A stretch of DNA of 64,000 nucleotides, taken from contig DASRZP010000063.1 of NCBI GenBank assembly GCA_035686305.1, forward strand, positions 4,396 to 68,395. The letters are read 5' to 3'. The notes under the pieces were generated by a model. The model saw nothing but the letters and a program-made list of their open reading frames with translations, searched no databases and had not been told where the DNA came from. This DNA comes from Thermodesulfovibrionales bacterium. GTDB taxonomy: Bacteria > Nitrospirota > Thermodesulfovibrionia > Thermodesulfovibrionales > UBA9159. The position numbers and the translations under genes were made by a program. Below are positions 17,167 to 63,995 of this stretch, piece by piece. How positions within the stretch are numbered: position 1 is the stretch's first letter; each line of letters opens with the position of its first letter.

Positions 17167-17242
17167 TGGTGGGCAGTCGCAGAATCGAACTGCGGACACG
17201 AGGCTTTTCAGGCCTCTGCTCTACCGACTGAGCTAACTGCCC
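17167..17242 (-). tRNA. tRNA-Phe (anticodon GAA), CCA encoded
   Basis: The reverse complement folds by hand as a cloverleaf: GGGCAGT/ACTGCCC acceptor stem, GCTC-AGTCGGTA-GAGC D arm, GAGGC-CTGAAAA-GCCTC anticodon arm, CGCAG-TTCGATT-CTGCG T arm, then ACCA. Confidence 0.9.
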
Positions 17243-40553: not shown

Positions 40554-40568
40554 TCTGGTGTACTGACA

Positions 40569-42913: not shown

Positions 42914-42917
42914 CTGA

Positions 42918-46529: not shown

Positions 46530-46617
46530 TAGGGTCCCCGGAATTCAAGAAGCCGCAGGGGTTGCCATGATCTCCGGGGACAGAAGAGATCGTCTCCTCC
46601 AGCCAGACGAGAACGGG

Positions 46618-48435: not shown

Positions 48436-48472
48436 GGACTATTCCCGATGGCAGGGATCGTTAACGAGACAG

Positions 48473-49159: not shown

Positions 49160-49296
49160 CACAAATCCTCCCTCTTTCTCTCCGGAAGCAGAACGTTCTC
49201 AAGATGAACCGTTGGGATCAAAGTCCTCTCGAGGACGCGGAACCGGCCTCTAGAGCGGGCATCGATGACGGAGGCATCAAGAGAAAGGGGCGAAAT

Positions 49297-49335
49297 GTTA
49301 CAATTCTGTTACGATACCGTGAATATTCCGTTACA
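49297..49335 (+). promoter_or_regulatory. Pho-box-like array: 4 half-sites at 11-bp phasing
   Basis: GTTACA (49297), GTTACG (49308), GTGAAT (49319), GTTACA (49330). Upstream of response regulator 1. Confidence 0.6.
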
Positions 49336-49384
49336 TCCTTGTAGCCTCTTGCATCCTTATGCCCTCAAATGGTATATGTACAGC

Positions 49385-50083
49385 ATGAACAATGCAAAGA
49401 TCCTGATCGTCGATGACGAGCCTGATATCGTAGAACTCGTTTCTTATAACCTTACGAAAGAGGGGTTCGAGGCATTGTCAGCCTCAGACGGGAAGGAGGC
49501 CCTCGATAAGATCAGGGCAGGCGATCCTAACCTTGTTATCCTTGACCTCATGCTCCCTGGGATACAGGGCATGGAGATCTGTCGAATTTTACGCAATGAC
49601 CCACGAACGAAGAGCATACCGATCATCATGCTTACCGCAAAAGGAGAAGAAGTGGACAAGGTTCTCGGCCTTGAGCTCGGTGCTGACGACTACATAACAA
49701 AGCCCTTCAGTCCACGGGAGCTCCTGGCAAGGGTTAAGACCGTCATGAGAAGGACATCGAAAAAGGCGATCGATGATAAGGTTGTCCGAATAGGGAACCT
49801 GACGATCAACAAAGAGACCTATTCCGTGAGAAAGAATGACAGAGTTTTGGATCTGAGTTCCACCGAGTTCAGGCTTCTTCTCTATCTTGTTGAGAGAAGG
49901 GGGAAGGTTTTCAGCCGTGATCAGCTTCTCGACGCGGTCTGGAAGGATGAGGCCTTTGTAGAGCCGAGAACCGTAGACGTCCACATCAGGAGACTGCGCA
50001 CCCACGTCGAGGACGACCCGGCAAACCCCAGGTACGTAAAGACAAAGAGAGGAATCGGTTATTATGTCGACGGAGAAGCATGA
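49385..50083 (+). CDS. PhoB/PhoP-like OmpR-family response regulator (paralogue 1)
   Basis: KILIVDDEPDIVEL...LVILDLMLPGIQGMEICRILRNDPRTKSIPIIMLTAKGEEVDKVLGLELGADDYITKPFSPRELLARV...VDVHIRRLRTHVE...VKTKRGIGYYV. I trimmed the start to ATG 49385. Confidence 0.85.
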   Translation: MNNAKILIVDDEPDIVELVSYNLTKEGFEALSASDGKEALDKIRAGDPNLVILDLMLPGIQGMEICRILRNDPRTKSIPIIMLTAKGEEVDKVLGLELGADDYITKPFSPRELLARVKTVMRRTSKKAIDDKVVRIGNLTINKETYSVRKNDRVLDLSSTEFRLLLYLVERRGKVFSRDQLLDAVWKDEAFVEPRTVDVHIRRLRTHVEDDPANPRYVKTKRGIGYYVDGEA

Positions 50084-51816
50084 CGAAGAGAATCTTCAGA
50101 CGAATCTTCGTAATCTATGCCGTTATCGTTCTCCTCGCAGGGGTTGTCGGCGAGATCTATATTACCTCGGCTGTCAGAGATAACCGTATTGCCGTTCTGA
50201 GACAGCACCTTGAAGATTCAATAGGGCTCCTTTCTCCCGGCATATCCTTTACCAACGGCAACCTTGACGCCTTCTGCAGGGGGGTAAAGGAAAAGGTCCA
50301 TGCCCGTGTCACCATAATACGGATCGATGGAAGGGTGATCGGCGATTCTGACCACGAATCTGCATCTATGGATAATCACGCACATCGCACGGAGATCCAG
50401 AAGGCGGCCAATTTTGGGATCGGCATGAGTATTCGTCACAGCGATACGTTACACGAAGATTTGCTCTATGTCGCACAGAAGATGGCACGAAGCGGAACCG
50501 ACGCAGGATACATCAGGCTTGCGGTGCCGTTGCAGAGTATTTATCGCTCGGTAAATCTCCTCAGGCTAAGGATGATCCTTGCTGTGTCGGCGGTGCTGCT
50601 CGTAACATGGGGAGTCTCAGTATGGCAGATCTCCCATCTGAAGAGACTTCTCAAGGAGATCACGGGTTTCTCACGGTCCCTCTCGCGGGGTGAGATAGAC
50701 AAGAGACTCTTTCTCGACAAGGCGGGGGAATTCAGCGAGATTGCAGATAATCTGACCGCCATGTCGGTCACCCTGCAGGGCATGATGTCGCAAAGCGAAG
50801 AGGAGAGGAATCGTCTGAACGTTATTCTCAAGAGCCTTCCTGATGCATTGCTCATCATGGATGGGAAGGGCATGATCACCCTTTCGAGCTCTTCAGTAAA
50901 GGATTTTTTTGGAGACGTTCCTGCGGCAGGGACGGGGTTTGCAGAAGTGGTGCGAAATCACGAGTTGGCTGATCTCATCGACGAGGCACGGAAGACCCTT
51001 GCTCCGGGCACGGCTGAATTCAGCATCGAAACACCGGAGGAAAAACATCTCATGGCGAGGGTCTCCCCGCTTTTTTATCGAGGAAGTGAGCTTTCAGGGT
51101 TTGTCGCGGTATTTCACGATATCACCGAGATCAAGAAACTCGAACAGGTGAGAAAGGATTTTGTTGCCAACGTCTCCCATGAACTGAAGACCCCGATTAC
51201 CGCGATCAAGGGCTTTGCCGACACGCTTCTCGACGGCGCGCTCGGAGACCAGGAAAATGCAACACGGTTTGTCCAGACCATCAGGTCGAACAGTGAGCGT
51301 ATCAACGCCCTCGTCGATGACCTCATGATCATCTCCAAGATCGAACTTGGGGTCATAAGGGTCGAGAAGTCTCTCATCGATATCGGAGGGGTCTTCGAGA
51401 ATATCGTGGAGCTTTTCAAGGCAAAAGCGGCTTCAAAGAATCTTTCTCTGGAAATTCACGGGGATCAGACCATCGGCCAGATCGAGGCAGACAGGAACCG
51501 CCTCATCCAGATTCTGACCAATCTCGTCGACAATGCAGTGAAGTTCACGGAAACGGGAAGGGTGACGTTCGGCATCGACAGAGAGGAAGACGGAAAGCCC
51601 TTTCTCTTTGTGGAAGATACGGGCATCGGTGTCCCTGCCAAGTTCCTATCGAGGCTCGGCGAGAGGTTCTTCAGGGTGGACCTCGCACGATCGAGAAAGA
51701 TGGGAGGGACAGGACTCGGCCTCGCAATCGTCAAGCATCTTGTGAAGGCCCACGGATGGCATATGCAGTTCGAGAGTGTGCAGGGCAAGGGCACCCGCGT
51801 GAAGATCATCATTTAA
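50080..51816 (+). CDS. PhoR-like sensor histidine kinase (TM-sensor-HAMP-PAS-HisKA-HATPase)
   Basis: FVANVSHELKTPITAIKGFADTL (H-box), NLVDNAVKFT, DTGIGVPAKFLSRLGERFFRVD, GGTGLGLAIVKHLV. ATGA overlap with regulator 1. Confidence 0.8.
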   Translation: MTKRIFRRIFVIYAVIVLLAGVVGEIYITSAVRDNRIAVLRQHLEDSIGLLSPGISFTNGNLDAFCRGVKEKVHARVTIIRIDGRVIGDSDHESASMDNHAHRTEIQKAANFGIGMSIRHSDTLHEDLLYVAQKMARSGTDAGYIRLAVPLQSIYRSVNLLRLRMILAVSAVLLVTWGVSVWQISHLKRLLKEITGFSRSLSRGEIDKRLFLDKAGEFSEIADNLTAMSVTLQGMMSQSEEERNRLNVILKSLPDALLIMDGKGMITLSSSSVKDFFGDVPAAGTGFAEVVRNHELADLIDEARKTLAPGTAEFSIETPEEKHLMARVSPLFYRGSELSGFVAVFHDITEIKKLEQVRKDFVANVSHELKTPITAIKGFADTLLDGALGDQENATRFVQTIRSNSERINALVDDLMIISKIELGVIRVEKSLIDIGGVFENIVELFKAKAASKNLSLEIHGDQTIGQIEADRNRLIQILTNLVDNAVKFTETGRVTFGIDREEDGKPFLFVEDTGIGVPAKFLSRLGERFFRVDLARSRKMGGTGLGLAIVKHLVKAHGWHMQFESVQGKGTRVKIII

Positions 51817-51851
51817 CCGAAATGTAACAGTGCTTTCACACTGTCGTAATG
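51813..51851 (+). promoter_or_regulatory. Pho-box-like array: 4 half-sites at 11-bp phasing
   Basis: TTAACC (51813), GTAACA (51824), TTCACA (51835), GTAATG (51846). It starts on the kinase stop codon, upstream of regulator 2. Confidence 0.6.
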
Positions 51852-51901
51852 CTTCCCGCGGTATCCTTATCCACAATCGTATCAGGAACGAAGGTAGATC
51901 T

Positions 51902-52621
51902 ATGTCGCGACAGGACGCACAGAAAATTCTTGCCGTGGACGATGAGCAGGACATCATAGAGCTTCTCGCCTATAATCTTTCCATCGATGGTTTTGAAGTA
52001 ACGACGGCGGCGGACGGGGAGGAGGCCCTGAAGAAGATCAGGGCGATGAGTTTCGATCTCGTTATCCTTGATCTCATGATGCCCGGCATACACGGAATGG
52101 ACCTCTGTCGTATTCTGAGGAATGACCCGAAAACAAAGAACCTCCCGATTATCATGCTCACGGCAAAGACTGAGGAAGTGGACAGGGTTCTCGGCCTTGA
52201 AATGGGCGCTGATGATTACGTAACGAAACCCTTCAGTCCGAGGGAATTGACTGCACGTATAAAGGCCGTTCTGAGACGCTCGACAAGGAACGTGCCCGAA
52301 TCCAGGTACATCACCATCGGCAACCTCACGATCAATACGGAAACCTATTCTGTTGCCAAGGACAATGTCCCTCTGAATCTCAGTCCCACGGAATTCAGGC
52401 TCCTCCTGTATCTCGTTGAACGGAGGGGCAAGATATTTAATCGTGAGCAGCTCCTCAATGCCGTCTGGAAGGACGAAGGATATGTCGAACCAAGGACCGT
52501 TGATGTCCATGTGAGCCGGATCAGAATGCAGATTGAAGAGGACCCGGCGAATCCTCTCTATATCAAGACAAGGAGGGGGCATGGCTACTATTTTGATAAC
52601 ACCGTTCCCGAAGGCAAATAG
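51902..52621 (+). CDS. PhoB/PhoP-like OmpR-family response regulator (paralogue 2)
   Basis: KILAVDDEQDIIEL...LVILDLMMPGIHGMDLCRILRNDPKTKNLPIIMLTAKTEEVDRVLGLEMGADDYVTKPFSPRELTARI...VDVHVSRIRMQIE...IKTRRGHGYYF. Collinear with paralogue 1 throughout. Confidence 0.85.
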   Translation: MSRQDAQKILAVDDEQDIIELLAYNLSIDGFEVTTAADGEEALKKIRAMSFDLVILDLMMPGIHGMDLCRILRNDPKTKNLPIIMLTAKTEEVDRVLGLEMGADDYVTKPFSPRELTARIKAVLRRSTRNVPESRYITIGNLTINTETYSVAKDNVPLNLSPTEFRLLLYLVERRGKIFNREQLLNAVWKDEGYVEPRTVDVHVSRIRMQIEEDPANPLYIKTRRGHGYYFDNTVPEGK

Positions 52622-52801
52622 TTCCCGGCGAGGTTTGGAATTACCAATTCGGTCACCGGCAATGCCGTGCACTTATCATTCCCGCAAGCGAAGCACATCA
52701 GGAATCCTTCTGAAAGGAAAGATTCCGGCCGGAATGACAGAATAGCAGCTGAATATGGCTTTGTCAGCGATCGTTTTAGTAAGGCCGGCGCTGCCTTCCC
52801 C

Positions 52802-54046
52802 ATGAAGGAACCACCGGAGGAGCCATTTCTCTGGGGTGTCGCCACTTCCGCCTTTCAGCTTGAAGGCTCGCCCAATGCAGACTGGTCGTCCTGGGATACG
52901 ATCCTGAGTAAGAAACCGGCGGTGACAAACCATTATGAGCTGTACCGGGAGGATCTTGCCCTCCTGAAAGACCTTGGTGTGAATGCCTATCGCTTTTCCC
53001 CCGAATGGAGCAGGATACAACCGCGTGAGGACAGCTGGGATGAAAAGGTCATCCGTCACTATCAGGAGATTATTGAGATCCTTAAGAGATACGGCATCGA
53101 GCCGATGTTGACCCTCCATCACTTTACCCATCCCCTCTGGTTCATAAAGAGATATCCCTGGCACGAAGATGCGTCAGTGGATACCTTTCTTGCCTATGTA
53201 AAGCGTATTGTCGCAGCAATAGGCGGCGTAACTTATTGGATAACCTTTAACGAGCCCTATGTCCTCATCCTCGCAGGGTACTTTGAAGGGTGCACGCCTC
53301 CGGCGATAAAGAGTGTGCAGCTGGGTGTCAGGGCCTTGGCAAATATTCTGAGGGCTCACGCAGGGGCATTCGAGATCATCCATGATGCTCACCCCAACGC
53401 AAGAGTGAGCGTGGCCCATAATATGGCTGCCCTTGCCCCCTGGAAGAAATGGAATCCCCTGGACAGGCTCCTTGCGCGACTTGCGAAACGCTTCTATAAT
53501 CACTCCCTCCTCGATGCCTTTCTGACCGGGTCACTGAAGATCAAGTTTCCCTTCAAGGAAGAAATGGAGATTCCCGTTCCCATCAAAGGCAAGCTCGACT
53601 TTTTCGGCGTTAATTACTACACGAGGATCCACATGCGGTTCAATCCCCTGAAGACGATGGGAGCGGAGATGAGACACCTTGACATTGGCGGTCATGGCCT
53701 AACCGACATGGGGTGGGAAATCCATCCTCATGGCCTCGAGAAGGTCCTCCGCTACGCCACAAAGCTCGAAGTCCCCCTCATCATAACCGAAAATGGCATC
53801 GCCACAAAGGACAGCCAGAAGAAGATACGCTTCATGCAGAACCATATCGATGTGATGGAGCATTGCAAGAAAGAGGGAATGGATATCAGGGGCTATTTCT
53901 ACTGGTCCCTCATCGACAACTACGAGTGGCTCCAGGGACTCGATGCACGCTTCGGGCTTTACAAGGTAAACTTTGAGACCCTCGAACGTATACCCACGAA
54001 CGCAGCCGCATATTATTCCTACCTCATAAAAAACAGGAAGTTTTAG
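52802..54046 (+). CDS. GH1-family beta-glucosidase/glycosidase
   Basis: FLWGVATSAFQLEGS, acid/base motif WITFNEPYV, nucleophile motif LIITENGIA, and C-terminal YFYWSLIDNYEW. I trimmed the start to ATG 52802. Confidence 0.85.
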   Translation: MKEPPEEPFLWGVATSAFQLEGSPNADWSSWDTILSKKPAVTNHYELYREDLALLKDLGVNAYRFSPEWSRIQPREDSWDEKVIRHYQEIIEILKRYGIEPMLTLHHFTHPLWFIKRYPWHEDASVDTFLAYVKRIVAAIGGVTYWITFNEPYVLILAGYFEGCTPPAIKSVQLGVRALANILRAHAGAFEIIHDAHPNARVSVAHNMAALAPWKKWNPLDRLLARLAKRFYNHSLLDAFLTGSLKIKFPFKEEMEIPVPIKGKLDFFGVNYYTRIHMRFNPLKTMGAEMRHLDIGGHGLTDMGWEIHPHGLEKVLRYATKLEVPLIITENGIATKDSQKKIRFMQNHIDVMEHCKKEGMDIRGYFYWSLIDNYEWLQGLDARFGLYKVNFETLERIPTNAAAYYSYLIKNRKF

Positions 54047-54199
54047 CCGGTCTCCCTTCTCACCGCCAAGACCCCTGCCGATGAGCCGAGGGTCGGACCG
54101 GACTGCCCGTCGTTGGCCGGAGAGATGGAGGGGGTACCCGGCCTCCTCCGTTCAGGGGCGGAAGATAATGATACTATGCCTGCCCTTCAGGTTTCACAT

Positions 54200-54238
54200 T
54201 TAACCATAATGTAACGCCAATTTCATCATACTGACATG
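54200..54238 (+). promoter_or_regulatory. Pho-box-like array: 4 half-sites at 11-bp phasing
   Basis: TTAACC (54200), GTAACG (54211), TTCATC (54222), GACATG (54233). A candidate -10 TATGAT lies at 54248. Upstream of the PHP gene. Confidence 0.6.
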
Positions 54239-54291
54239 TTTACTGCCTATGATATAAGCCATGATGATTATCTATCGAACCAAGCAGATCC

Positions 54292-54984
54292 ATGCTGCTG
54301 TGTGATTTCCATATTCATACAACCTATTCTGACGGCTCAGTGGAGCTGAGGAGGACAGTCGATCTTTTCGGACAGGCAGGCTTTGATGTCATAGCGATAA
54401 CAGACCATGTCGTTAATGGCGACAACCCGCTCGGCAAACTCGCCCACCGGTTTCGGCTTTCCGTAACAGCCGCCAACTTCGAAGAATATATCGAAGACAT
54501 AAAAGAGGAAGCTGAAAGAGCCCAGGCCAAATACGGCATGCTCGTCATTCCCGGAATTGAGATAACCAAGAACCATCGTACCACAGATACTTCAGCCCAC
54601 ATCTTGATCATTGACGTCCAGGACTTTATTCCCGCCTGCATGAGTTATGAAGAGATATTTCTCGAGGCGAAAAGGCAGAAGGCCCTGACGATAGCCTGCC
54701 ATCCGCACTACATGTCGGCGATGACTGACAGGGATACCCTCTTTCTCTGGAACAACAGGGAACGGTATGCGCGCTACATCGACGCCTGGGAGATCGCCAA
54801 CCGCGATGATGTGTTTAACGTTATTAGCCTGAAGAAGTATCCCTATGTTGCGAACAGCGACTTCCACAAGCCGAGGCACCTCTATTCGTGGAAGACACTG
54901 CTCAACTGCGAGAAGGATACCGCTTCCATCAAGGAATGTATAAAACACAACAAGGGTGTCGCACTCACACTCTTCAGGAATTAG
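54292..54984 (+). CDS. PHP-domain metal-dependent phosphoesterase
   Basis: LLCDFHIHTTYSDGS (PHP motif I), AITDHV, ILIIDV, IACHPH. Confidence 0.75.
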   Translation: MLLCDFHIHTTYSDGSVELRRTVDLFGQAGFDVIAITDHVVNGDNPLGKLAHRFRLSVTAANFEEYIEDIKEEAERAQAKYGMLVIPGIEITKNHRTTDTSAHILIIDVQDFIPACMSYEEIFLEAKRQKALTIACHPHYMSAMTDRDTLFLWNNRERYARYIDAWEIANRDDVFNVISLKKYPYVANSDFHKPRHLYSWKTLLNCEKDTASIKECIKHNKGVALTLFRN

Positions 54985-54987
54985 GAG

Positions 54988-56214
54988 GTGATGATGCTAC
55001 TATTCTGGACATTTGCGTGCCTGACGCTCTTCGGGATAATCGGATATCTGTTTCAAATGGCCGCTGTTCGGTCATATGTCTTCCCCCCCGACTCAGGGGA
55101 AAGCGCAGGCTTTCCCCGATCTTATCCTCCTGTCTCAATCCTCAAACCTCTCAAGGGTCTTGATGACGGGCTTTTTGACAACCTCGAAAGCTTCTGCAAT
55201 CTTGATTATCCCCGCTATGAGATCATCTTTGCCCTTCAGAACCGGAATGATCCTGCCCACAAGGTCGTACAGAAGATAAGGGAAAAATACCCGTCCTGCG
55301 ACATATCGATCGTTGTGGAATTTTGCGATGCCGGACTTAACCCCAAAGTCAACAACCTAATCCCCGCTTATAAACGGGCGAGACACGACCTCATACTCAT
55401 CAGCGACAGCAATGTGCGTGTCGAGAAGGATTATCTGAAGGATACGGTGAGGCATATGGCCGACCCGTCGGTGGGGCTGGTCAGCAATATTATCAGGGGC
55501 GTCAGGGGCCGTTCCCTCGGCGCGGTCTTTGAGAACCTCCACCTGAATTCCTTCGTCGTCGGCAACGTCTGCCTCCTGGACCGGTATCTCGGCATGCCAT
55601 GTGTGGTAGGCAAATCCATGCTCATGAGAAAGGATGATCTCGAATCCATCGGCGGATTGTATACGGTGAAGGACCTCCTTGCTGAAGACTATATCATGGG
55701 TGAGCGGATACATGCTCTCGGCAAACGAGTCGTTCTCTCCGGTCACGTCATCAACAACGTGAATGAGGACTGGGGCATCGGAAAGTTTCTGGGGAGGCAC
55801 ATCCGGTGGGGCAAACTGAGATGGAAGATCGGGGGCGCCAAGTACTTCTTTGAACTTGTCAGCAACACGATCGTGGTGGCGTGCTTACCCCTCATATTTT
55901 CCCCGGTCACAACTGGGGCGCTCCTCCTGGCAGGTTTCACAGGAGTGGTGAAGATTGCCCGTGATTTCTACCTGGGCAGGAAGATCGGGGCGGATATGAA
56001 ACCTTTCCTCTATCTGCTCGCTCCCGCCAAAGACCTCTTCATCGGAATCATCTGGATCTTTCCTATCCTGAGCAATACCGTAACGTGGAGGGGGAACCGC
56101 TACCAGATCGGGAAGAACTCGATGCTCTATCCCTGTCCCGAGACGGGGCTCAAGGTCTGGAAGCCAAGGATTATGACCGTGATAAAGACACGACTGGCGT
56201 TGTCAAAGTTCTAA
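54988..56214 (+). CDS. GT21-like membrane glycosyltransferase (ceramide-glucosyltransferase / processive lipid GT / HpnI-like)
   Basis: PPVSILKPLKGLDDGLFDNLESFCNLDYPRYEIIFAL, GLNPKVNNLIPAY, LILISDSNVRV, GKSMLMRKDDLESIGG, RHIRWGKLRW, and several TM segments. The GTG start is 4 nt after the PHP gene and has SD TAGGAGG. Confidence 0.7.
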   Translation: MMMLLFWTFACLTLFGIIGYLFQMAAVRSYVFPPDSGESAGFPRSYPPVSILKPLKGLDDGLFDNLESFCNLDYPRYEIIFALQNRNDPAHKVVQKIREKYPSCDISIVVEFCDAGLNPKVNNLIPAYKRARHDLILISDSNVRVEKDYLKDTVRHMADPSVGLVSNIIRGVRGRSLGAVFENLHLNSFVVGNVCLLDRYLGMPCVVGKSMLMRKDDLESIGGLYTVKDLLAEDYIMGERIHALGKRVVLSGHVINNVNEDWGIGKFLGRHIRWGKLRWKIGGAKYFFELVSNTIVVACLPLIFSPVTTGALLLAGFTGVVKIARDFYLGRKIGADMKPFLYLLAPAKDLFIGIIWIFPILSNTVTWRGNRYQIGKNSMLYPCPETGLKVWKPRIMTVIKTRLALSKF

Positions 56215-56228
56215 GGAAGGAGGCCTCC

Positions 56229-56429
56229 ATGACGCAACACTATGCGATATCTTACCGTGACCTGGGCGAGGAACATGCTTGCCCGTTCAGCGACAAGGAG
56301 ACCAATATCTGTTCAGCGTCCCTTTCATCCATGATCATCGGCAGGCACAAGGACCAGATCTACTGTTCCAGCGACAATTATGACAACTGCCCGATGTTCC
56401 TCTCAAAGATTCTGAGAAAGAGGGGCTGA
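56229..56429 (+). CDS. small four-cysteine protein (66 aa), paralogue 1
   Basis: ATG 56229 is preceded by AAGGAAGGAGG. Sequence: MTQHYAISYRDLGEEHACPFSDKETNICSASLSSMIIGRHKDQIYCSSDNYDNCPMFLSKILRKRG. Cys pattern CP-x9-C-x17-C-x7-C. It is hidden inside the longer track ORF 56085..56429. Confidence 0.5.
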   Translation: MTQHYAISYRDLGEEHACPFSDKETNICSASLSSMIIGRHKDQIYCSSDNYDNCPMFLSKILRKRG

Positions 56430-56512
56430 TCTTGCCGGTTACAGAATCTTAACCGTTTTGTAATGTATTTTTAACAAAAGATTCTTTATTATAGTTCCCG
56501 AAGGAGGTAACG

Positions 56513-56716
56513 ATGACAACGCTCGGATTTGTCTTCTGCCCGAATCTCAGGGGCAGCATGGAAGGGATAAAATGTGGTATTACGAATAACCTCATCAGGG
56601 ACATGGACGACGTTTCACCCAAGCTCTGTATGAGCAGGAGGCACGAAGCATGTGCCATATATATGCAGTCCCTGCAGCTTATGATTGAATGCGGTTCATA
56701 TACCAACTGCGCGTAG
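56513..56716 (+). CDS. small four-cysteine protein (67 aa), paralogue 2
   Basis: The ATG is preceded by GAAGGAGGT. ...FCPNLRGSMEGIKCGITNNLIRDMDDVSPKLCMSRRHEACAIY... Cys pattern CP-x11-C-x17-C-x7-C. Confidence 0.5.
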   Translation: MTTLGFVFCPNLRGSMEGIKCGITNNLIRDMDDVSPKLCMSRRHEACAIYMQSLQLMIECGSYTNCA

Positions 56717-56980
56717 GGTCATGTGAAGATATGTGCCTTTTCCTCGAGTCGTAACGATATTCATACCGTGCCAGCATACGCATGGCGGCAGATGACACCC
56801 TTGCTCTTGTGGTTTGCCCGGCATTGATTTCCGCACGAAGAGATCGTTTTACGGATGTCGTTGTCAAGATTATCGCATTCTTAATTTATCTGCCTTCTGT
56901 CGCTTCTCTCTGTTTCCCCGCCGCTATAAAGAAAGCATGTTCCTGCTTCCACAAAGGTTCATACGAAAGGGAGGTTCCGT

Positions 56981-58345
56981 ATGCAGCAAGCAGAATGCCT
57001 CAGGCCTCTTTGCTCTGACGGAGGTTCACCCGACGTGCCGGTTCCGGACCAGACCGTTGAAAAACGGCTGAAGAAGAAGATATTCGTCCTGGACACGAAC
57101 GTACTGATCCATGATCCAAGCTCCCTCTTCAGGTTCGGCACCCATGATGTGGTGATACCGTTTGTTGTTTTAGAGGAGCTCGACAGGCTCAAGAAAGGGC
57201 ACGGAGAGAAAGCGGTATCGGCGCGGAGCGCGCTCAGGATCATTGACCGTTTAACGGAGAAGGGCCCGTTGATGAAGGGCATCGCGATGGAAACAGGCGG
57301 TCTCCTTTCCATCGGCATCACGTTAAGCAGCGTCCCCACTGCCTTCATGGACGGCGTCACCGAGGATAACGCGATCATAAAGACGGCCCTCGGCGTCGTG
57401 GAACAGCAGCAGACCGACGGACGAGGAAATATGGTACCCGTCACCTTGGTCTCCAAAGACACGACGGTGAGAATAAAGGCCGAGGCATGTGGTCTCCACG
57501 CGGAAGACTACGAGAGCGATAAAACGACCATCTTCCAGAAGTATGGACGGGTGCTGGAAGAATCCGATTACACGAACGGCATTCATTCCATACGGTACGT
57601 GAAGTCAGGGGAAGAGGTCTTCAGGCTGCAGGGCTGCAGCGCCCACACAAAGATCAAGAACGGAAAATCTCTGGAAGGCATTGCACCAAAAAATATCGAG
57701 CAACGATGCGCGATCGATGCGTTAATAAACCCTGACATCGAGGTCGTTGCCCTTACCGGCTCTGCGGGAACGGGGAAGACCCTTCTCGCCCTTGCCGCGG
57801 GGATACACCAGACCACAAAGAAATCACCCTTGTATGAGCAGGTCGTGGTGGCGCGACCGGTTGTCCCCATGGGCAATGATATCGGGTATCTGCCGGGGGA
57901 CGTGAACGAAAAGCTGACACCCTGGATGCAGCCGATCTTTGACAGCCTGGAGGTGATCGTCAACACGCCGAAAGGGCATATCAAGGATGATCGATCAACA
58001 GCACAATACCGGAGCTTTCAGTACCTCATCGATGCGGGTGTGCTTCAGATCGAGGCATTGACCTATATCCGCGGACGGAGCCTTCCCCAGCGGTATTTCA
58101 TCGTGGATGAAGCTCAGAATCTGAGGCCCGTCGATGTCAAGACGATCATTACCCGGTGCGGAGAAGGCACGAAGATCGTCTTTACCGGTGACCTGAACCA
58201 GATCGATACGCCCTATCTGGACGCAAAGAGCAACGGCCTTGCTTACCTCATCAGCCGCTTCATTGATGAGGAGAATTTCTGTTATCTGAACCTTCACTCC
58301 AGCGTCAGATCGAGGCTTGCAGAACAGGGCGCACGACTGCTGTAA
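56981..58345 (+). CDS. PIN-domain + PhoH-like ATPase (YlaK type)
   Basis: PIN: KIFVLDTNVLIHDPSSLFRFGTHDVVIPFVVLEELD. PhoH: ALTGSAGTGKTLLALAAG, FIVDEAQNL, TGDLNQID. SD GGGAGG. Confidence 0.85.
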   Translation: MQQAECLRPLCSDGGSPDVPVPDQTVEKRLKKKIFVLDTNVLIHDPSSLFRFGTHDVVIPFVVLEELDRLKKGHGEKAVSARSALRIIDRLTEKGPLMKGIAMETGGLLSIGITLSSVPTAFMDGVTEDNAIIKTALGVVEQQQTDGRGNMVPVTLVSKDTTVRIKAEACGLHAEDYESDKTTIFQKYGRVLEESDYTNGIHSIRYVKSGEEVFRLQGCSAHTKIKNGKSLEGIAPKNIEQRCAIDALINPDIEVVALTGSAGTGKTLLALAAGIHQTTKKSPLYEQVVVARPVVPMGNDIGYLPGDVNEKLTPWMQPIFDSLEVIVNTPKGHIKDDRSTAQYRSFQYLIDAGVLQIEALTYIRGRSLPQRYFIVDEAQNLRPVDVKTIITRCGEGTKIVFTGDLNQIDTPYLDAKSNGLAYLISRFIDEENFCYLNLHSSVRSRLAEQGARLL

Positions 58346-58352
58346 GGGGACG

Positions 58353-58370
58353 TAAGGCATGCCTTACGGT
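58353..58370. terminator. perfect 18-bp palindrome just after the PhoH-like gene
   Basis: CGTAAGGCATGCCTTACG begins 8 nt after the stop. There is no U-tract, so a terminator role is tentative. Confidence 0.35.
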
Positions 58371-58719
58371 CTCGTGTCGACAAAGAGAGATTTGACCTTA
58401 GGTTCATAGTCATACAACAGTTTGTTGTTATCAATTTGCTGCTGTTACGTCCTCCCGCGTACTCGAATTCGAAGTACTCCTGCTGAGAATCGTGAGAAAA
58501 TGATATATAATAACGGAAGGAAATTGAACCTCCGGCGTTGATGCGCTGCGTCTATTTCCCTACTTGCTCATGCTGGGGCGAGCGATGAGGTGATAGAGGA
58601 AACAACGGAAATTAGAGCGGCAAAAGGAATCATCGTTGATTCACCGGGAAATGAATCGGAAGAATAGACCCACGGACGGCTTTCCATGAAAACCGGTCGG
58701 CGGAAGAGAGGAGGAGAGA

Positions 58720-59109
58720 ATGAATTTCTGGGAAAAGGTAAAGAAAGATCTGCAGAAGGGACTGGAGGAAGGTATCACCTATGTCGTGGAGGGCGCCTCT
58801 ATCGTGAAGAAGAAGGCAGAGGAGCTTACTGAAGAAGGGAAAAGGCGGTACAGGCTCTATGAGCTGAAGACAAAAGTGCAGCAGGAGATCGCCGAACTTG
58901 GAGGAAAAGTGTATGAGTTGAGCGGGAAGGTCAGGAACCCCATGCTCGACAGCAAGGTGAAGGCAATAAAGGCGAGAATCAAGAAACTGGAACTGGAGAT
59001 AATAAAGCTCGAAGGCATTCCAAAAAGCACAGTGAGAAAAACAACCTCCCGAGCGTCAACTGCGAGAACAACCACAAAGCGGAAGGCATCTGGGGTCAAG
59101 ACCGTTTAG
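58720..59109 (+). CDS. coiled-coil hypothetical protein with basic S/T-rich tail
   Basis: 129 aa with SD GAGGAGGAG. Heptad-like charged sequence (KKKAEELTEEGKRRYRLYELKTKVQQEIAELGGKVYEL...IKKLELEIIKLEG). No family recognised. Confidence 0.5.
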   Translation: MNFWEKVKKDLQKGLEEGITYVVEGASIVKKKAEELTEEGKRRYRLYELKTKVQQEIAELGGKVYELSGKVRNPMLDSKVKAIKARIKKLELEIIKLEGIPKSTVRKTTSRASTARTTTKRKASGVKTV

Positions 59110-59264
59110 AAGAACAGAGAGCTCCGGCCTGTGACTCAGGAGATGGCCACATGCTTAGGCAAATAATGAAAGAAACCGATGTCGGCTGCCGATTCTCATG
59201 GTAAACTTAGTTCGGGGATCTTCAAAACCAAGCCGAAGTGAGAGGGTGGAAAGGGCGAGGAGTT

Positions 59265-59495
59265 ATGGCGACTGCATATCAGTACGAAAATGATGCGGAA
59301 CGGAACAAACATTGTGAAGCCATCCGGAGACTCGCAGAGAAGCTGGGCGTACCTGAAGAGCAGATAAGGATGCTCTACGAGGAAAACCTCCTCAGTATTA
59401 AGCAAGGGGCGAGAATAAAAGACTATCTCGTCATTCTCGTGAGCCGCCACGTGAGAGATTCGATAGGGAGGGGCTCGTTTCAGAAGATGTCGTAA
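59265..59495 (+). CDS. small protein, DUF3562-like (tentative)
   Basis: ATG 59265 with SD GAGGAG. ...AIRRLAEKLGVPEEQIRMLYEENLLSIKQGARIKDYLVILVSRHVRD resembles my memory of the DUF3562 pattern (ARI.DFL.VL..R.VR). Confidence 0.4.
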   Translation: MATAYQYENDAERNKHCEAIRRLAEKLGVPEEQIRMLYEENLLSIKQGARIKDYLVILVSRHVRDSIGRGSFQKMS

Positions 59496-59640
59496 GAGCT
59501 GAGATGCAATAAGAAACGAGCTGCTGCTCATCGCCTCAAAGGACTCAAGGGATTGGAGGGTGATCATTGATTACCCTTCCAGCCCCGGGATCGTTCCTTG
59601 GCCACATTCTTCTTGCTTTCCCGCACGTTACAATCACAAT

Positions 59641-59679
59641 TTAACGATTCTTTCATAGAACTGACATATTTCTGTAACA
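59641..59679 (+). promoter_or_regulatory. Pho-box-like array: 4 half-sites at 11-bp phasing
   Basis: TTAACG (59641), TTCATA (59652), GACATA (59663), GTAACA (59674), followed by TATGAT (59681). Upstream of the porin gene. Confidence 0.6.
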
Positions 59680-59763
59680 ATATGATGCTAAGCTGATAGC
59701 ATCGTATTGGACCCATTACAGGAACAGTTTATAAAGCACCTACCTTGCCAAAGGAGGTTCTGG

Positions 59764-61116
59764 ATGAAAAGAAGATGGTCCGCTTTTATCCTTGGGTTAT
59801 GTTGCCTTCTCCTGTCAGCGGGGGTATCAGAGTCTGCAAGCATCACGAATCCTATTCTGAAGAAGCTTGTGGAAAAAGGTATTCTCTCCGAGCAAGAGGC
59901 TCTTGAAGTAATGCAGGATATGGAAAAAGAGATACGGGAGAAGGACAAAGCAACAGAAGTCAAGATTGAAGAGAAGGTTGCCGAGAAGGTCAGTGAGACA
60001 GCGCCTGCGGAAAAGAACGAGGAGATCGATAAAATTGTGAAAGCCTTCAAAGGTCTTAAGTTCAGCGGCCTCTGGTACCTCTCTTATGGTTATGGAAAGA
60101 CAGGAGGCATACCAAGCGGTGCGCAATTCAACAATTTTAATGTAAAACGAGGGTATTTCACCTTAGAAAAGGAGCTCTTTCCATGGTTGTCAGGCCGGAT
60201 GACAACTGATGTGACGACGGTGAATCTGAAGACACAGAATCTTGGACCTGGTGAGAATGTCTCTCTCAACGTCAACGGCTCCCTGGCGGTAAGAATAAAG
60301 TACCTTTATGCTCTCGTTACCCCTCCGGATTTGGCATTTCTCACCAAACCGGGCGCTGAAGTCGGCATTGTGCACACGCCGTGGCTTGATTTTGAAGAGC
60401 ACATAAATTATTACCGTTTGCAGGACACGATGTTTATCGAAAGAAACGGCATCATGAGTTCAGCGGATTACGGCGTAACCTTTGCCGCGCTCTTAGGTGG
60501 GCTCATGGATGAGAGTTATCGTAAAAATGTCAATCCCTCATATCCTGGCAGCTACGGGAGCATTCAGGCAGGAATTTATAATGGCGGAGGATACACGACG
60601 ACCGAGCAGAACAGGAATAAGGTGCTCGAGGGACGGATAACCGTCAGGCCTCTACCCGACATTATCCCGGGACTTCAGCTCTCGTATTTTGGGGTGACGG
60701 GCAAGGGCAACGTTGCCGCGCACCCCAATTGGACCGCAAATCTTGCATTCGGCAGTTTTGAGCACGAATACTTTGTCGTGACAGGGCAGTACTTCTGGGG
60801 GGATGGGAACGCCCAGGGATCGGATCAATTCCAGAAGAGAGGTTATTCCCTGTTTACGGAACTGAAGCCTTTTATTGAATTGAAGTTCCCGCTTGAGAGA
60901 TTCACTCTCATTGGTCGCTTCGACCACTTTAATCCCAATAAGAATGTGAGCGATGCCTTGTCAGGGGAAAACAACAGGTATATTGTAGGTATAGCTTACA
61001 GTATAGACAGACTGCATAATAACATGGTCCTCCTCGATTACGATAATGTAGAATACAAGCAACCGGGAAAGACACGTGATGAGAGAATACAGCTGACGTT
61101 GCAGGTGGCTTTTTAG
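59764..61116 (+). CDS. outer-membrane beta-barrel porin, phosphate-selective (OprO/P)-like
   Basis: Signal peptide MKRRWSAFILGLCCLLLSAGVSESA. N-terminal helical/charged segment (ILKKLVEKGILSEQEALEVM...). Alternating beta-strand pattern and a C-terminal ...IQLTLQVAF (terminal Phe). SD AAGGAGG. The family call is by eye. Confidence 0.65.
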   Translation: MKRRWSAFILGLCCLLLSAGVSESASITNPILKKLVEKGILSEQEALEVMQDMEKEIREKDKATEVKIEEKVAEKVSETAPAEKNEEIDKIVKAFKGLKFSGLWYLSYGYGKTGGIPSGAQFNNFNVKRGYFTLEKELFPWLSGRMTTDVTTVNLKTQNLGPGENVSLNVNGSLAVRIKYLYALVTPPDLAFLTKPGAEVGIVHTPWLDFEEHINYYRLQDTMFIERNGIMSSADYGVTFAALLGGLMDESYRKNVNPSYPGSYGSIQAGIYNGGGYTTTEQNRNKVLEGRITVRPLPDIIPGLQLSYFGVTGKGNVAAHPNWTANLAFGSFEHEYFVVTGQYFWGDGNAQGSDQFQKRGYSLFTELKPFIELKFPLERFTLIGRFDHFNPNKNVSDALSGENNRYIVGIAYSIDRLHNNMVLLDYDNVEYKQPGKTRDERIQLTLQVAF

Positions 61117-61238
61117 TCTGCTTTGGTGCTTGCGGCAGTTGTCGCCCTTTCCGGCCGACATGGACGGGATCCTCTACCGCGGGAAATGGAACGACCTGAC
61201 CTGATATATGCGCGGCTGCTAAAGCATGGCGAAGAAAT

Positions 61239-61277
61239 GTTACAAAAATTTAACATTCCCTTCATGTAGCCGTAACA
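61239..61277 (+). promoter_or_regulatory. Pho-box-like array: 4 half-sites at 11-bp phasing
   Basis: GTTACA (61239), TTAACA (61250), TTCATG (61261), GTAACA (61272), then TATAAT at 61287..61292. Confidence 0.6.
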
Positions 61278-61303
61278 ATAGGGCGTTATAATTAATATTA
61301 GAT

Positions 61304-61603
61304 ATGCTGGCAAGCATAGCAATGGATCAAGTGACAGAAATACGATGCCCCTCCTGCGAGGGTGATGCAGTGTACCGTTACGGCAGGATAAAGACCGGTG
61401 CCCAGCGGTTCATCTGCCTCGTTTGTGGCATGCAGTTTACCCCCGGGGCAAAGAAGGCGTTGCTCAAGGGTAAGCCGCTCTGTCCGGAGTGTGGCAAGAC
61501 AATGAATGTCTATAAGCTTGAGGGACTGGTCATACGTTTCAGATGCTCGGGCTATCCTGTTTGCAAGACGTTCAGAAAATACACCATGAAGGAGGAAGAA
61601 TGA
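61304..61603 (+). CDS. double zinc-ribbon protein
   Basis: CPSCEG...CLVCG and CPECG...FRCSGYPVCKT: two CxxC pairs per ribbon, the second resembling a topoisomerase-type C4 finger. The start is close to the -10 element, so the transcript may be nearly leaderless; ATG 61322 is the alternative. Confidence 0.55.
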   Translation: MLASIAMDQVTEIRCPSCEGDAVYRYGRIKTGAQRFICLVCGMQFTPGAKKALLKGKPLCPECGKTMNVYKLEGLVIRFRCSGYPVCKTFRKYTMKEEE

Positions 61604-61971
61604 GCTATTACCTGCATAATGTCCCCGGTCGACTCAGAGTAAAGAGCCCCCTCTTAAAGAGAAACAGTGATGCGGGAGAGGAACTGAAAAAGGCGCTGAG
61701 TACGATTCAGGGCATCGCAACCGTTGACTTTAACCCCGTGACAGGAAGTCTCCTGGTCAACTATAACCATAGGACAACGAAGCAAGAGGACATCATCTCT
61801 CTGCTTGAGCGCAAGGGGTATTTCGACCGGGGGAGGGCGACGACGAATGAAGACTATATTCATGTCGCAGCCGAAAAGACCGGACGCCTCGTCGGCAAGG
61901 CAGTGCTTGGAATAGCGATCGACAAGGCCCTTGAAGGTACCGCGTTGTCACTCATCGGATTGCTGATTTAG
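61600..61971 (+). CDS. HMA-like (GRLRV-type) metal-associated domain protein with C-terminal hydrophobic helix
   Basis: MSYYLHNVPGRLRVKSPLLKRNSDAGEELKKALSTIQGIATVDFNPVTGSLLVNY. ATGA overlap with the upstream gene. Confidence 0.5.
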   Translation: MSYYLHNVPGRLRVKSPLLKRNSDAGEELKKALSTIQGIATVDFNPVTGSLLVNYNHRTTKQEDIISLLERKGYFDRGRATTNEDYIHVAAEKTGRLVGKAVLGIAIDKALEGTALSLIGLLI

Positions 61972-62233
61972 TTTTTGAACGGAGGATTTCGAGGTCCTTT
62001 CTGATCTCATCGCCTAAGTATTTTCCCTTTTCTGCCAGTAGTTTTCTTTTATCGATCATTCTTTCGACTCTTTCTCGGCTCCAGGAGGTCCCTTCCCTTC
62101 GTGGCGGGCAGTTAAACACCTTCAGACGTACCATGGCTGCTTTGAATTTCAGGGCTCTTTCCTCGGAGCAGCCGCAGAGGCAGGTAATGATCGAATCATT
62201 GGACAAGGCATGTACAGCGTATTAAAGTAGGCC

Positions 62234-63076
62234 ATGGATACTCAACCGCAAAAAATTGTTCTCTCCCTGACGATCGCGTACTTCTTTATCGAGCTCAGCG
62301 GTGGACTCTATTACCGGAGCCTCGCCCTCGTCACGGACGCATCTTTTATGGCCATCAATGTCGTGGGCCAGGCGCTCGCCTTGTTAGCGGGCAAGCTCTC
62401 CGAGAGGCTGCCGGACAGAGACAACACCTTCGGATATGAGAGGGCAAAGGTCCTGTCGGGGCTTTTCAACGGGATACTCGTGGGATTCCTCATTTTCTAT
62501 GTTCTCATAGAAGCATACAAGAAGATCATGCACCCCGAGCCCATTGCCGCAGACAAGGTACTGATAATAGCCATTCTCGGCCTCGCGGTGAATGCATATG
62601 GATTATTCAGGTTCAAAGAGCATGCGAACCTCATGCATATCAAGGGCGCGAGGCTTCTTGTTCTCAACGACACCTTGGGATCAGTGGGTGTTATAACCTC
62701 GTCCGTTCTTATCCATTTTACCGGTCTCTACCTCCTCGATCCCCTTGCCGGGGTTCTCATCAGCCTCCTCGTGGGATATCCAACCTACTACCTGATAAAA
62801 GACAGCCTGCGTATCCTAATGGAGGGTAACCCCTCCTCCTTCACCGGAGAGGACATAGAGAAGTTCATCTACAGGAACTTTCAGAACGTCAAACGTGTGA
62901 AGGATCTCCATATATGGGGGTTATCTACGGAGAGGATCATCTGTGTCGCAAGGGTCAGGACCGCCGGACCGATAGACCACAGGGACACGGTGAGAAGCAT
63001 GAAGCATCGTCTCATGAAGCATTTTGGATTCTCCGATGTCTTTGTTGAGGAATATGAAGCAGGAGATGAGAAGTGA
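62234..63076 (+). CDS. cation diffusion facilitator (CDF) metal efflux transporter
   Basis: Six TM segments. ALVTDASFMAINVVGQALAL and LNDTLGSVGVI (the D/H sites of TM2/TM5), plus a C-terminal cytoplasmic domain ...VKDLHIWGLS. Confidence 0.8.
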   Translation: MDTQPQKIVLSLTIAYFFIELSGGLYYRSLALVTDASFMAINVVGQALALLAGKLSERLPDRDNTFGYERAKVLSGLFNGILVGFLIFYVLIEAYKKIMHPEPIAADKVLIIAILGLAVNAYGLFRFKEHANLMHIKGARLLVLNDTLGSVGVITSSVLIHFTGLYLLDPLAGVLISLLVGYPTYYLIKDSLRILMEGNPSSFTGEDIEKFIYRNFQNVKRVKDLHIWGLSTERIICVARVRTAGPIDHRDTVRSMKHRLMKHFGFSDVFVEEYEAGDEK

Positions 63077-63109
63077 TCATGCGTCTGGCAGTGGCCGTAG
63101 AGGTCTTTG

Positions 63110-63898
63110 CTATGCCGCGCACGCATGCTCTGCCCCTTCCCTGAGGACCTTCCTGCGCCAGCGCTCAATGAGCCTATCCGTATCGAGGAGGACAAAAAAA
63201 TCTGTGGTTCCGAACAAAGGATTAAAGGTCGGCTCGCCGCATATCTGGGCTCCTAGCCTGAGGTAACCCTTCATGAGCGTCGGCATGAGAGAATGGGCCG
63301 CATCCCTGTCGCAGAACGACAGCATCTGCACACCCGGCTGGCGCTTCAACGGGTCTACGGTGTAACGCTCGTCAGCCCTATGGACGCGGTTTAGGTAGGA
63401 GTATACGATATTCACCAAGGCCGTGTTCGCGCTGTGCAGGCTCGCGCAGCCGAAGAGATAGCGGATGCCATACCTTTCCACATAAGCGGCAATCCCCCGC
63501 CAGAGGAGGCCGATGATCGGGACGGTTCTGTAATCTTTGTGAATGCAGGAGCGGCCTAACTCCAGCTTTGTGCCAGGAAGACTCCTGATTGCCGAGAGGT
63601 TGAACTCAGTCTCCGAGTAATACCCCACTGAATTCTCCGCAACCACGCCCGGCATCATACGATAGGTCCCGACAACCCTTTCGTTTTCCCTGTCAACGAC
63701 AACAAGATGGTCGCAGTAATCGTCAAATTCGTCCCGATCCATTCCCGTCAGATAGGATTCAGAAAGACCCTCATGCAGCTCCCTGTTGAATACGTCGAAG
63801 CGAAGTCTGAACGCCGCCTCCCGCTCATGATTCTCCACAGCCAGCTTTACAGAGAACCTGCCATGCGAAATTTCCATGCCTGCACCATCTGCTCTCAT
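63110..63898 (-). CDS. OlsB-like GNAT N-acyltransferase (lyso-ornithine-lipid synthase / 'hemolysin' family)
   Basis: AFRLRFDVFNRELHEG...DRDEFDDYCDHLVVVD...VVGTYRMM...SETEFNL...LELGRSCIHKDYR. I trimmed the start to ATG 63898 (SD GGAGGAGGAG), because the track start 63940 sits inside the predicted promoter. Confidence 0.7.
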   Translation of the reverse strand: MRADGAGMEISHGRFSVKLAVENHEREAAFRLRFDVFNRELHEGLSESYLTGMDRDEFDDYCDHLVVVDRENERVVGTYRMMPGVVAENSVGYYSETEFNLSAIRSLPGTKLELGRSCIHKDYRTVPIIGLLWRGIAAYVERYGIRYLFGCASLHSANTALVNIVYSYLNRVHRADERYTVDPLKRQPGVQMLSFCDRDAAHSLMPTLMKGYLRLGAQICGEPTFNPLFGTTDFFVLLDTDRLIERWRRKVLREGAEHACAA

Positions 63899-63957
63899 GA
63901 ACGCGCTCCTCCTCCAAAAGATATTGTGCGGTATCGGCACTAGTATAACAACGGTGC

Positions 63958-63995
63958 TTTGCAGGAGTATTACACGCCGGTGAAATTTCGGTTAC
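63958..63995 (-). promoter_or_regulatory. Pho-box-like array: 4 half-sites at 11-bp phasing (minus strand)
   Basis: The minus strand reads GTAACC (63995), TTCACC (63984), GTAATA (63973), GCAAAG (63962), then TATACT (63947..63942). It is almost identical to the array at 51824 (TGTAAC..TTTCAC..GTAAT). Confidence 0.6.

Follow-up and report, generated by a model that had tools for sequence, protein, structure and literature searches.

Seven phased four-unit repeat arrays, putative Pho boxes, in a gene cluster with PhoB- and PhoR-like genes of a Thermodesulfovibrionales bacterium

Phased repeat arrays of the window

The window analysed here, a stretch of 64,000 nucleotides from contig DASRZP010000063.1 (assembly GCA_035686305.1, Thermodesulfovibrionales bacterium, Nitrospirota), carries in its last part a gene cluster that encodes two PhoB-like response regulators and a PhoR-like sensor histidine kinase (Table 1). 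Intergenic regions of this cluster hold seven arrays of four hexameric half-sites spaced exactly 11 bp apart, with the array consensus TTAACn-rAAAy / TTAAY / KTMATA / GTAACA. Arrays of the same kind stand before pstS-pstC-pstA further along the contig and before pstS in related genomes, and they are interpreted below as probable Pho boxes. Six of the arrays had been listed in a first-pass annotation of the sequence, and all six are present with the phasing described there, the sixth spanning 63995 to 63957 on the minus strand; as a full set the list fell short by one array with four matching sites (array 7), which had been overlooked.

A loose half-site, KTHAY, was derived by reduction of the 24 hexamers of that annotation, and four copies in phase were searched for on both strands of the window. 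At a spacing of 11 bp, 18 positions matched in at least three of the four sites (3/4) and 4 positions in all four (4/4), as against means of 0.24 and 0, respectively, in dinucleotide-preserving shuffles (n=200). The other periods from 6 to 33 gave 0-2 positions each, apart from period 27 with 5. The phased positions are confined to 48.4-64 kb, the first 48 kb of the window being free of them, and all are intergenic except for a chance-like 3/4 match at 48461; single KTHAY matches number 1259 in the window. When scored with a position weight matrix (PWM) trained on arrays from other genomes only, the seven window sites reached 19.7-38.8 bits, and the next independent site -0.7.

Regarding the set of 84 arrays from the window and 17 related loci, a TAnnnT element follows the fourth hexamer at a gap of 9 nt in 61 arrays and of 10 nt in 12 (73/84 together). 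Long open reading frames (ORFs) hold 10 of the 84 arrays (12%), compared with 81% of random positions; phased arrays thus avoid coding sequence, a comparison which the first-pass annotation had proposed. The alignment of 51 perfect arrays displays an AAAy tract after hexamer 1, a preference for GTAACA at the promoter-proximal site 4 and a gTAtnaT element beginning exactly 9 nt past hexamer 4, none of which was required by the search pattern, yet all of which are conserved. A Pho box is recognised by two or more direct repeats with 11-bp periodicity which replace the -35 element about 10 bp before a -10 element: each array has four such units, with a signal at period 11 only, and arrays 2-6 occupy this position, whereas array 1 does not and array 7 is ambiguous. 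The -10 elements assigned earlier hold good for TATCCT, TATGAT (array 3), TATAAT and TATACT, all at gaps of 9-10 nt, but not for TAGCCT (array 1) or for TATGAT of array 4 (59681-59686), which was ruled out by its gap of 1; given the fixed gap of 9-10 nt, the -10 element of array 4 is TAAGCT. A generic scan of 49-64 kb for sigma-70 promoters and terminators (18 promoter-like sites, 12.8 expected) was uninformative, as is to be expected of promoters that lack a -35 element.

Table 1. Arrays, promoter elements and genes of the cluster in window numbering (n/4, hexamers matching KTHAY; PWM scores in bits; gap, nucleotides between hexamer 4 and the -10 element; aa, amino acids)
Feature	Position	Strand	Remarks
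Array 1	49296-49334	-	GTAACG/TTCACG/GTAACA/GTAACA; 4/4 minus, 3/4 plus; PWM 30.7 minus, 4.2 plus
Putative phoB1 promoter, sigma-70-type	49349-49378	+	-35 TTGCAT (49349-49354), 18 nt, TGg and -10 TATATG (49373-49378)
phoB1, OmpR/PhoB-family response regulator	49385-50083	+	232 aa; Pfam Response_reg, Trans_reg_C
PhoR-like sensor histidine kinase	50080-51816	+	578 aa; Pfam sCache_like, PAS, HisKA, HATPase_c
Array 2	51813-51851	+	TTAACC/GTAACA/TTCACA/GTAATG; 4/4; PWM 33.6
phoB2 -10, TATCCT	51862-51867	+	gap 10
phoB2, PhoB-like regulator	51902-52621	+	239 aa; TIGR02154, 268.4 bits (cut-off 296.2); 68% identical to phoB1
GH1 glycosidase	52802-54046	+	Pfam Glyco_hydro_1, 275 bits; no array of its own
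Array 3	54200-54238	+	TTAACC/GTAACG/TTCATC/GACATG; 3/4; PWM 19.7
PHP-GT21 -10, TATGAT	54248-54253	+	gap 9
PHP-domain phosphoesterase	54292-54984	+	Pfam PHP
GT21 glycosyltransferase	54991-56214	+	Pfam Glyco_transf_21, 160.2 bits (gathering score 21.7)
sCysA, small Cys-rich protein	56229-56429	+	no family match
Array 7	56438-56476	+	GTTACA/TTAACC/GTAATG/TTAACA; 4/4; PWM 22.6; before sCysB
sCysB, small Cys-rich protein	56513-56716	+	67 aa; strong ribosome-binding site; no family match
PIN-PhoH2	56981-58345	+	PIN_4, 103 bits; PhoH, 165 bits; same strand as sCysB
Weak candidate half-array	58381-58434	+	TTGACC/TTCATA and TATCAA at gap 9; PWM -0.7, best non-array site in window
DUF3562 protein	59265-59495		Pfam
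Array 4	59641-59679	+	TTAACG/TTCATA/GACATA/GTAACA; 3/4; PWM 31.2
Array 4 -10, TAAGCT	59689-59694	+	gap 9
Putative outer-membrane porin	59764-61116	+	450 aa; signal peptide, C-terminal Phe
Array 5	61239-61277	+	GTTACA/TTAACA/TTCATG/GTAACA; 4/4; PWM 38.8, window maximum
Array 5 -10, TATAAT	61287-61292	+	gap 9
Zn-ribbon protein	61304-61603	+	Pfam
HMA_2 protein	61600-61971	+	Pfam
CDF cation-efflux transporter	62234-63076	+	Pfam
OlsB-like N-acyltransferase	63110-63898	-	262 aa; Pfam Acetyltransf_5 match
Array 6 -10, TATACT	63942-63947	-	gap 9
Array 6	63957-63995	-	GTAACC/TTCACC/GTAATA/GCAAAG; 3/4; PWM 27.8

Recurrence in relatives, upstream of pst genes and in metagenomes

A protein search with the GT21 glycosyltransferase yielded 17 related loci (designated by L numbers) from metagenome-assembled genomes (MAGs) of Nitrospirota/Thermodesulfovibrionia and three outgroup loci. 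Phased arrays at period 11 only were found in 15/17 related loci and in 0/3 outgroup loci. The PHP gene is preceded by an array in 15 of the 17, which makes PHP-GT21 the most conserved target, and the GT21 proteins of the array-bearing genomes are 54-75% identical. Array 2, which starts within the last codons of the kinase gene, has counterparts before phoB2 in L001 (35.6 bits) and L002 (38.5 bits); array 5 is conserved in L001, L014, L016, L044, L056 and L133; and orthologues of array 7 precede sCysB in L001, L014, L016 and L134. In nine related loci an array lies directly before a gene for PstS that passes NCBIfam equivalog cut-offs (405 bits against 339; 383 against 205), and L003 contains the full pstS-pstC-pstA-pstB operon.

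The window's own contig was found again, as L141, via the OlsB-like protein (overlap identical at 1000 of 1000 positions), and it extends ~9.9 kb past the window. Two arrays of 35.6 and 40.1 bits are situated directly upstream of pstS-pstC-pstA, ~7 kb beyond the window end (L141 2861-2899 and 3090-3128, minus strand, corresponding to ~70.8-71.0 kb in window numbering). A distance of 229 bp separates them, both have the orientation of pstS and each is followed by a TATCCT -10 element of its own, which suggests tandem Pho promoters for pstSCA. Doubled arrays are likewise seen before PHP in L003, L006, L012, L015 and L017. One more array (34.5 bits) precedes a further small Cys-rich gene, and a weaker one (L141 4691, 17.8 bits) an operon for a 227-aa protein, a P-type ATPase and metK, so that window and L141 together hold 11 arrays in ~25 kb. 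The segment L141 3915-9879 (plus strand) comprises genes for DUF5132 and HMA_2 proteins, the weak array, the 227-aa protein, a type II P-type cation ATPase and S-adenosylmethionine synthetase, and forms a second HMA_2-containing, metal-related unit of the cluster. The first-pass annotation had anticipated that the motif would recover pst genes, which it does on the same contig, in nine relatives and in the metagenome scan described below; its view of a regulon local to the window did not survive, the arrays continuing to pstSCA beyond the window end. ORFs at 43.7-45.2 kb that had been considered pstS-like were shown to encode GT2 glycosyltransferases.

A metagenome scan with a pattern of four sites and a -10 element gave at least 120 loci, for 100 of which the first downstream ORF was classified. 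Among the matches listed, these 100 ORFs included 15 of the PstS type, 8 phosphoesterases (PF04185), 3 Porin_O_P porins and 2 PHO4 transporters, and the Zn-ribbon, porin, PHP and sCysB families of the window were recovered as well; in the listed loci, 14 of 17 PstS-like ORFs directly follow an array. The array-bearing contigs range from 23% to 64% in G+C content, and the four-unit box type is therefore probably widespread rather than specific to Nitrospirota. Ammonium transporters account for 4 of the 100 downstream ORFs among the matches listed (L132, L139 and two others), which may reflect phosphate-nitrogen cross-talk or another OmpR-family regulator with a similar box; PhoP control of amtB has been reported in Streptomyces (PMC2691820).

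Genes of the cluster and their proposed regulation

The gene list of the first-pass annotation was largely upheld by Pfam and NCBIfam. The best NCBIfam match of phoB1 is PhoB (TIGR02154) and its best PDB match RegX3; its recognition helix reads RTVDVHIRRLR, which we take to be identical to that of E. coli PhoB. PhoB is the top NCBIfam family for both regulators with scores below the cut-off, and both are best described as PhoB-like. The kinase gene, whose start overlaps the phoB1 stop, encodes a domain set (sCache-like/PAS/HisKA/HATPase) compatible with the PhoR/PnpS family. The GH1 gene is syntenic with PHP-GT21 in 8 related loci and possibly co-transcribed with phoB2. The PhoH-like gene, described earlier as having no array, indeed has none of its own, but the overlooked array 7 stands before its neighbour sCysB, with which it is possibly co-transcribed; the protein shows PIN and PhoH domains and scores 224 bits against 680 for the PhoH2 equivalog. 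The weak candidate half-array of Table 1 lies 3' of PhoH2 and 5' of a gene for a 129-aa coiled-coil-like protein (58720-59109) and is not established.

The 450-aa protein had been called an OprO/P-like porin, an assignment that is not borne out, as it does not match Porin_O_P (PF07396). No Pfam, NCBIfam or PDB match was obtained for it (phmmer against PDB gave nothing even at E=10), and an AlphaFold2 model made without an alignment was unusable (pLDDT 34). Since its close homologues in L129 (E 1e-136) and L086 (E 1e-128), whose genes also follow arrays, match Porin_4 above the cut-off, it is probably a porin of a family other than OprO/P. The top two NCBIfam matches of the OlsB-like protein are OlsB models, with scores of 175 bits (cut-off 350) and 172 bits (cut-off 320).

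Four families of 60-90-aa proteins with four cysteines are encoded in the island by at least four genes (window 56229-56429 and 56513-56716; L141 3443-3658 and ~3226-3485, both minus strand). The cysteine patterns are of the type CPx(L/F/Y)...C...C...CP, for example CP[FY]..C.AS..C..D.CP[LIMV][FY]L, and the two families scanned, sCysA and sCysB, gave no Pfam match. All four families have conserved members in other loci, among them the distant contigs L086, L106, L134 and L052, and the genes usually adjoin Pho arrays or pstS. These proteins could be unrecognised components of the Pho regulon, e.g., metal- or redox-linked regulators.

In L003 the PHP-GT21 operon continues into OlsF-like and flippase-like genes. 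Downstream of array 3, an ATG 7 nt past the -10 element opens a 14-codon ORF (54261-54305) which overlaps the PHP start (54292) out of frame and may represent an upstream ORF which lacks a leader and to which the translation of PHP is coupled; in L003 and similar relatives the PHP ATG itself lies 7 nt past the -10 element, a leaderless arrangement.

Taken together, the arrays are interpreted as Pho boxes, the operators of a PhoR-PhoB-type phosphate-starvation system, with a probability of about 0.85. This reading, already offered by the first-pass annotation, gains support from the recovery of pst genes, the fixed gap to the -10 element, the conservation of the arrays and their scarcity in coding sequence. 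We infer the binding regulator, the direction of regulation, the respective parts of PhoB1 and PhoB2 and the enzymatic roles as follows. Each array would offer four head-to-tail 11-bp units on one face of the helix, to be occupied by two dimers of PhoB1, of PhoB2 or of both in phosphorylated form. With the array ending 9-10 bp before the TAnnnT -10 element, in place of the missing -35 element, the protomer nearest the promoter would bring in RNA polymerase with sigma-70 in class II activation as with E. coli PhoB. Phosphate limitation would then switch on phoB2 (possibly with GH1), PHP-GT21-sCysA, sCysB (possibly with PhoH2), the porin, the Zn-ribbon/HMA_2 pair (possibly with the CDF transporter) and the OlsB-like acyltransferase and, outside the window, pstSCA, the further small Cys-rich protein and the P-type ATPase/metK operon. 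The regulon content points to high-affinity phosphate uptake together with replacement of phospholipids by glycolipids and aminolipids. The phoB1-phoR pair would be wired apart from these units: its putative promoter is complete, with a -35 and an extended -10 element, its mRNA is probably leaderless, and its box is inverted.

Array 1, at this pair, is inverted relative to phoB1 and stands 13 nt upstream of the -35 element of the putative promoter in Table 1. The phoB1 ATG (49385) lies 6 nt past the -10 element, with no Shine-Dalgarno sequence upstream, and the phoB1 mRNA is therefore probably leaderless. A plus-strand array 1 with TAGCCT (49342-49347) as its -10 element was rejected on the PWM score (4.2 against 30.7) and on its gap of 6. 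Autoregulation of phoB1-phoR, claimed in the first-pass annotation, may well hold, but the class II geometry assumed for it does not fit an inverted array before a full -35/-10 promoter. Regarding array 1 only, a somewhat favoured explanation is that the inverted box either modulates phoB1 from upstream in a class I-like manner or exerts negative feedback on an otherwise constitutive, leaderless phoB1 promoter, amplification in starved cells then proceeding via phoB2, the canonically activated paralogue. The strand preference of the PWM, the lack of a -10 element at gap 9-10 on both strands and the complete promoter with its close ATG argue for this, as does the recurrence of inverted half-sites upstream of phoB, two in L012, L013 and L101 and four in L009; in L013 a tRNA gene with a terminator lies upstream on the same strand, and the box consequently serves no divergent gene. 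Against it, forward arrays of normal geometry upstream of phoB genes in L002, L114 and L036 indicate that class II positive autoregulation exists in relatives, the closest relative L001 shows no clear box upstream of phoB, the GTAAC/GTTAC core is nearly palindromic, which makes binding in the opposite orientation possible, and the sign of regulation is not readable from the sequence. The sequence TTGAAT, 18 nt, TATAAA/TATAAC, 6-7 nt and ATG precedes phoB in L012, L013 and L101. A leaderless-looking phoB layout with inverted half-sites 13-14 nt before the -35 element is kept in four genomes (window 49349-49387; L012 ~4080-4150; L013 ~215-285; L101).

Regarding the arrays as a whole, operators of an OmpR-family regulator for envelope, metal or nitrogen stress, with incidental phosphate-related neighbours, are a very unlikely alternative to Pho boxes. 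Phased direct repeats at 11 bp are common to the entire OmpR/PhoB family, the regulators score below the PhoB equivalog cut-off, HMA_2, CDF and P-type ATPase targets are metal-related, and ammonium transporters recur among the listed metagenome matches. However, pstS recurs as a target more than any other gene, in this genome as well as in nine relatives and the metagenomes, phosphoesterases, OprO/P porins and PiT transporters are recovered too, and each of the two regulators scores highest against PhoB. Chance or AT-rich promoter composition as the source of the phased hexamers, for which the degenerate half-site with its many single matches and the weak individual significance of single 3/4 arrays might speak, is in effect disproved by the control with other periods and by the conservation across genomes, given the excess over shuffles, the empty neighbouring periods, the fixed 9-nt distance to the -10 element and the retention of arrays at orthologous promoters despite the divergence of the GT21 proteins.

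Several points weigh against the reading as Pho boxes, which rests on sequence comparison throughout, within a genome coverage of ~74 kb (the window and ~10 kb of the same contig). KTHAY was taken from the sites of the first-pass annotation itself, which renders the shuffle test alone partly circular; the control with other periods, the spacing to the -10 element, the preference for intergenic positions and the association with pst genes are free of this circularity. At the conserved gap, array 1 lacks a -10 element on either strand, and that of array 7 is ambiguous (TTATTA, 56486-56491, gap 9, or TATAGT, 56490-56495, gap 13); the fourth hexamer is weak in arrays 3 and 6. Both regulators fall just below the NCBIfam PhoB cut-off of 296.2 bits (283.1 for phoB1, 268.4 for phoB2), and the kinase below those of PnpS (360.1 bits against 400) and phoR_proteo (269.6 against 334.2). 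The Zn-ribbon/HMA_2 proteins, the small Cys-rich proteins and the P-type ATPase are targets without an established link to phosphate.

Thermodesulfovibrionia-type Nitrospirota are largely uncultured and common in anoxic sediments and the subsurface, and no description of Pho boxes in Nitrospirota was found in the literature searched. A Pho operator defined at the sequence level for this group would allow the starvation regulon to be read directly from MAGs. A four-unit box of the same kind, at a constant distance from the -10 element, also marks genes for PstS, phosphoesterases and porins in many unrelated contigs from metagenomes. New candidates for the Pho regulon are the PHP-GT21 pair, the small Cys-rich proteins and the Zn-ribbon/HMA_2 pairs. 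The system itself is a textbook one, and the understanding of PhoB-type activation is unchanged. It is a tentative and rather doubtful proposition that the cluster jointly holds three novelties, namely a lipid module in which a PHP-domain phosphoesterase may replace PlcP as the partner of GT21, the four families of small Cys-rich proteins, and a two-tier PhoB circuit in which a leaderless constitutive phoB1 with an inverted box may be followed by phoB2 as a class II-activated amplifier.

Elsewhere in the window, a glycosyltransferase-rich cluster without Pho arrays occupies 36354-48946 on the minus strand, with several GT2, one GT4 and one GT10 glycosyltransferase genes and a GlcNAc 2-epimerase-like gene. 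It also encodes a nucleotidyltransferase (NTP_transf_5), a PqqD-like protein and a protein of 605 aa in which a weak HPr-kinase-C-like region is joined to GT2. These last three are reminiscent of clusters for peptide modification (ribosomally synthesised and post-translationally modified peptides, RiPPs). A tRNA-Phe (GAA) at 17167-17242 on the minus strand was the sole Rfam or ARAGORN match in the whole window.

Comparison with known Pho systems

The PHP-GT21 operon has its nearest parallels in the Pho-box-controlled plcP-glycosyltransferase operons of marine bacteria, which are lipid-remodelling targets (PMC4796936), and in pgt of Agrobacterium and Mesorhizobium, which has a predicted Pho box and a role in lipid remodelling (PMC3972451). 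As in these, a phosphoesterase gene lies just upstream of, and tightly coupled to, a gene for a lipid-type glycosyltransferase behind a putative Pho box, and by this analogy PHP-GT21 would serve in lipid remodelling. Unlike in these, the phosphoesterase belongs to the PHP-domain proteins and not to the PlcP-type metallophosphoesterases, and GT21 best matches HpnI, the hopanoid glucosamine transferase, below the cut-off (255.6 bits against 310). OlsB/OlsF ornithine-lipid synthesis is paralleled by the OlsB-like gene of the window and the OlsF-like and flippase-like genes of L003, which would belong to the same regulon. A supposed parallel to PHP-GT21 in an operon of D. alaskensis G20 was dropped, since the genes named in the paper are those for OlsF and a GT4 enzyme, Agt, which lie apart in the genome.

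The E. coli Pho box has two 11-nt units, each of a CTGTCAT core and an A/T-rich tract, and overlaps the -35 element; pstS carries tandem boxes. Pho boxes are composed of 11-nt direct-repeat units bound head to tail (PMC4415409), and that of E. coli lies ~10 bp upstream of the -10 element (PMC1906773). The arrays share with the E. coli box the head-to-tail 11-bp units, a core of 5-6 nt followed by an A-rich tract (here AAAy) and the position in place of the -35 element, ~10 bp from the -10 element (PMC4415409, PMC1906773), and the E. coli GTCAT core fits KTHAY. They differ in their preference for TTAAC/GTAAC/TTCAY over CTGTCAT, in having four units as the rule instead of two, and in a Nitrospirota host with two PhoB paralogues. 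The autoregulation of E. coli phoBR is positive and runs through a standard box, whereas at phoB1 the box is inverted and precedes a full promoter.

The PhoP core binding region of B. subtilis consists of four TT(A/T/C)ACA-like repeats with 11-bp periodicity; the Hulett laboratory is said to have worked on these regions. The hexamers are nearly identical, KT(A/C/T)AYA here as compared with TT(A/T/C)ACA in B. subtilis, four repeats at an 11-bp period imply two dimers in both, and boxes occur in either orientation at some promoters. The arrays differ in allowing G at position 1 and in the dominance of GTAACA at the promoter-proximal site, and the host is a diderm with porin targets, its kinase having been compared by family scores only.

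The cyanobacterial SphR Pho box comprises at least three tandem 8-bp CTTAACCT repeats with 3-bp linkers, the same repeats being given for Synechocystis (PMC1906773). In common with it, the arrays have a TTAAC(C) core, 11-bp spacing and three or more repeats, and they likewise stand upstream of pstS, the SphR targets being pstS, sphX and phoA. In contrast to predicted cyanobacterial sites, which lie at variable distances, the arrays described here have four repeats with position-specific preferences and a strict distance of 9-10 nt to the -10 element.

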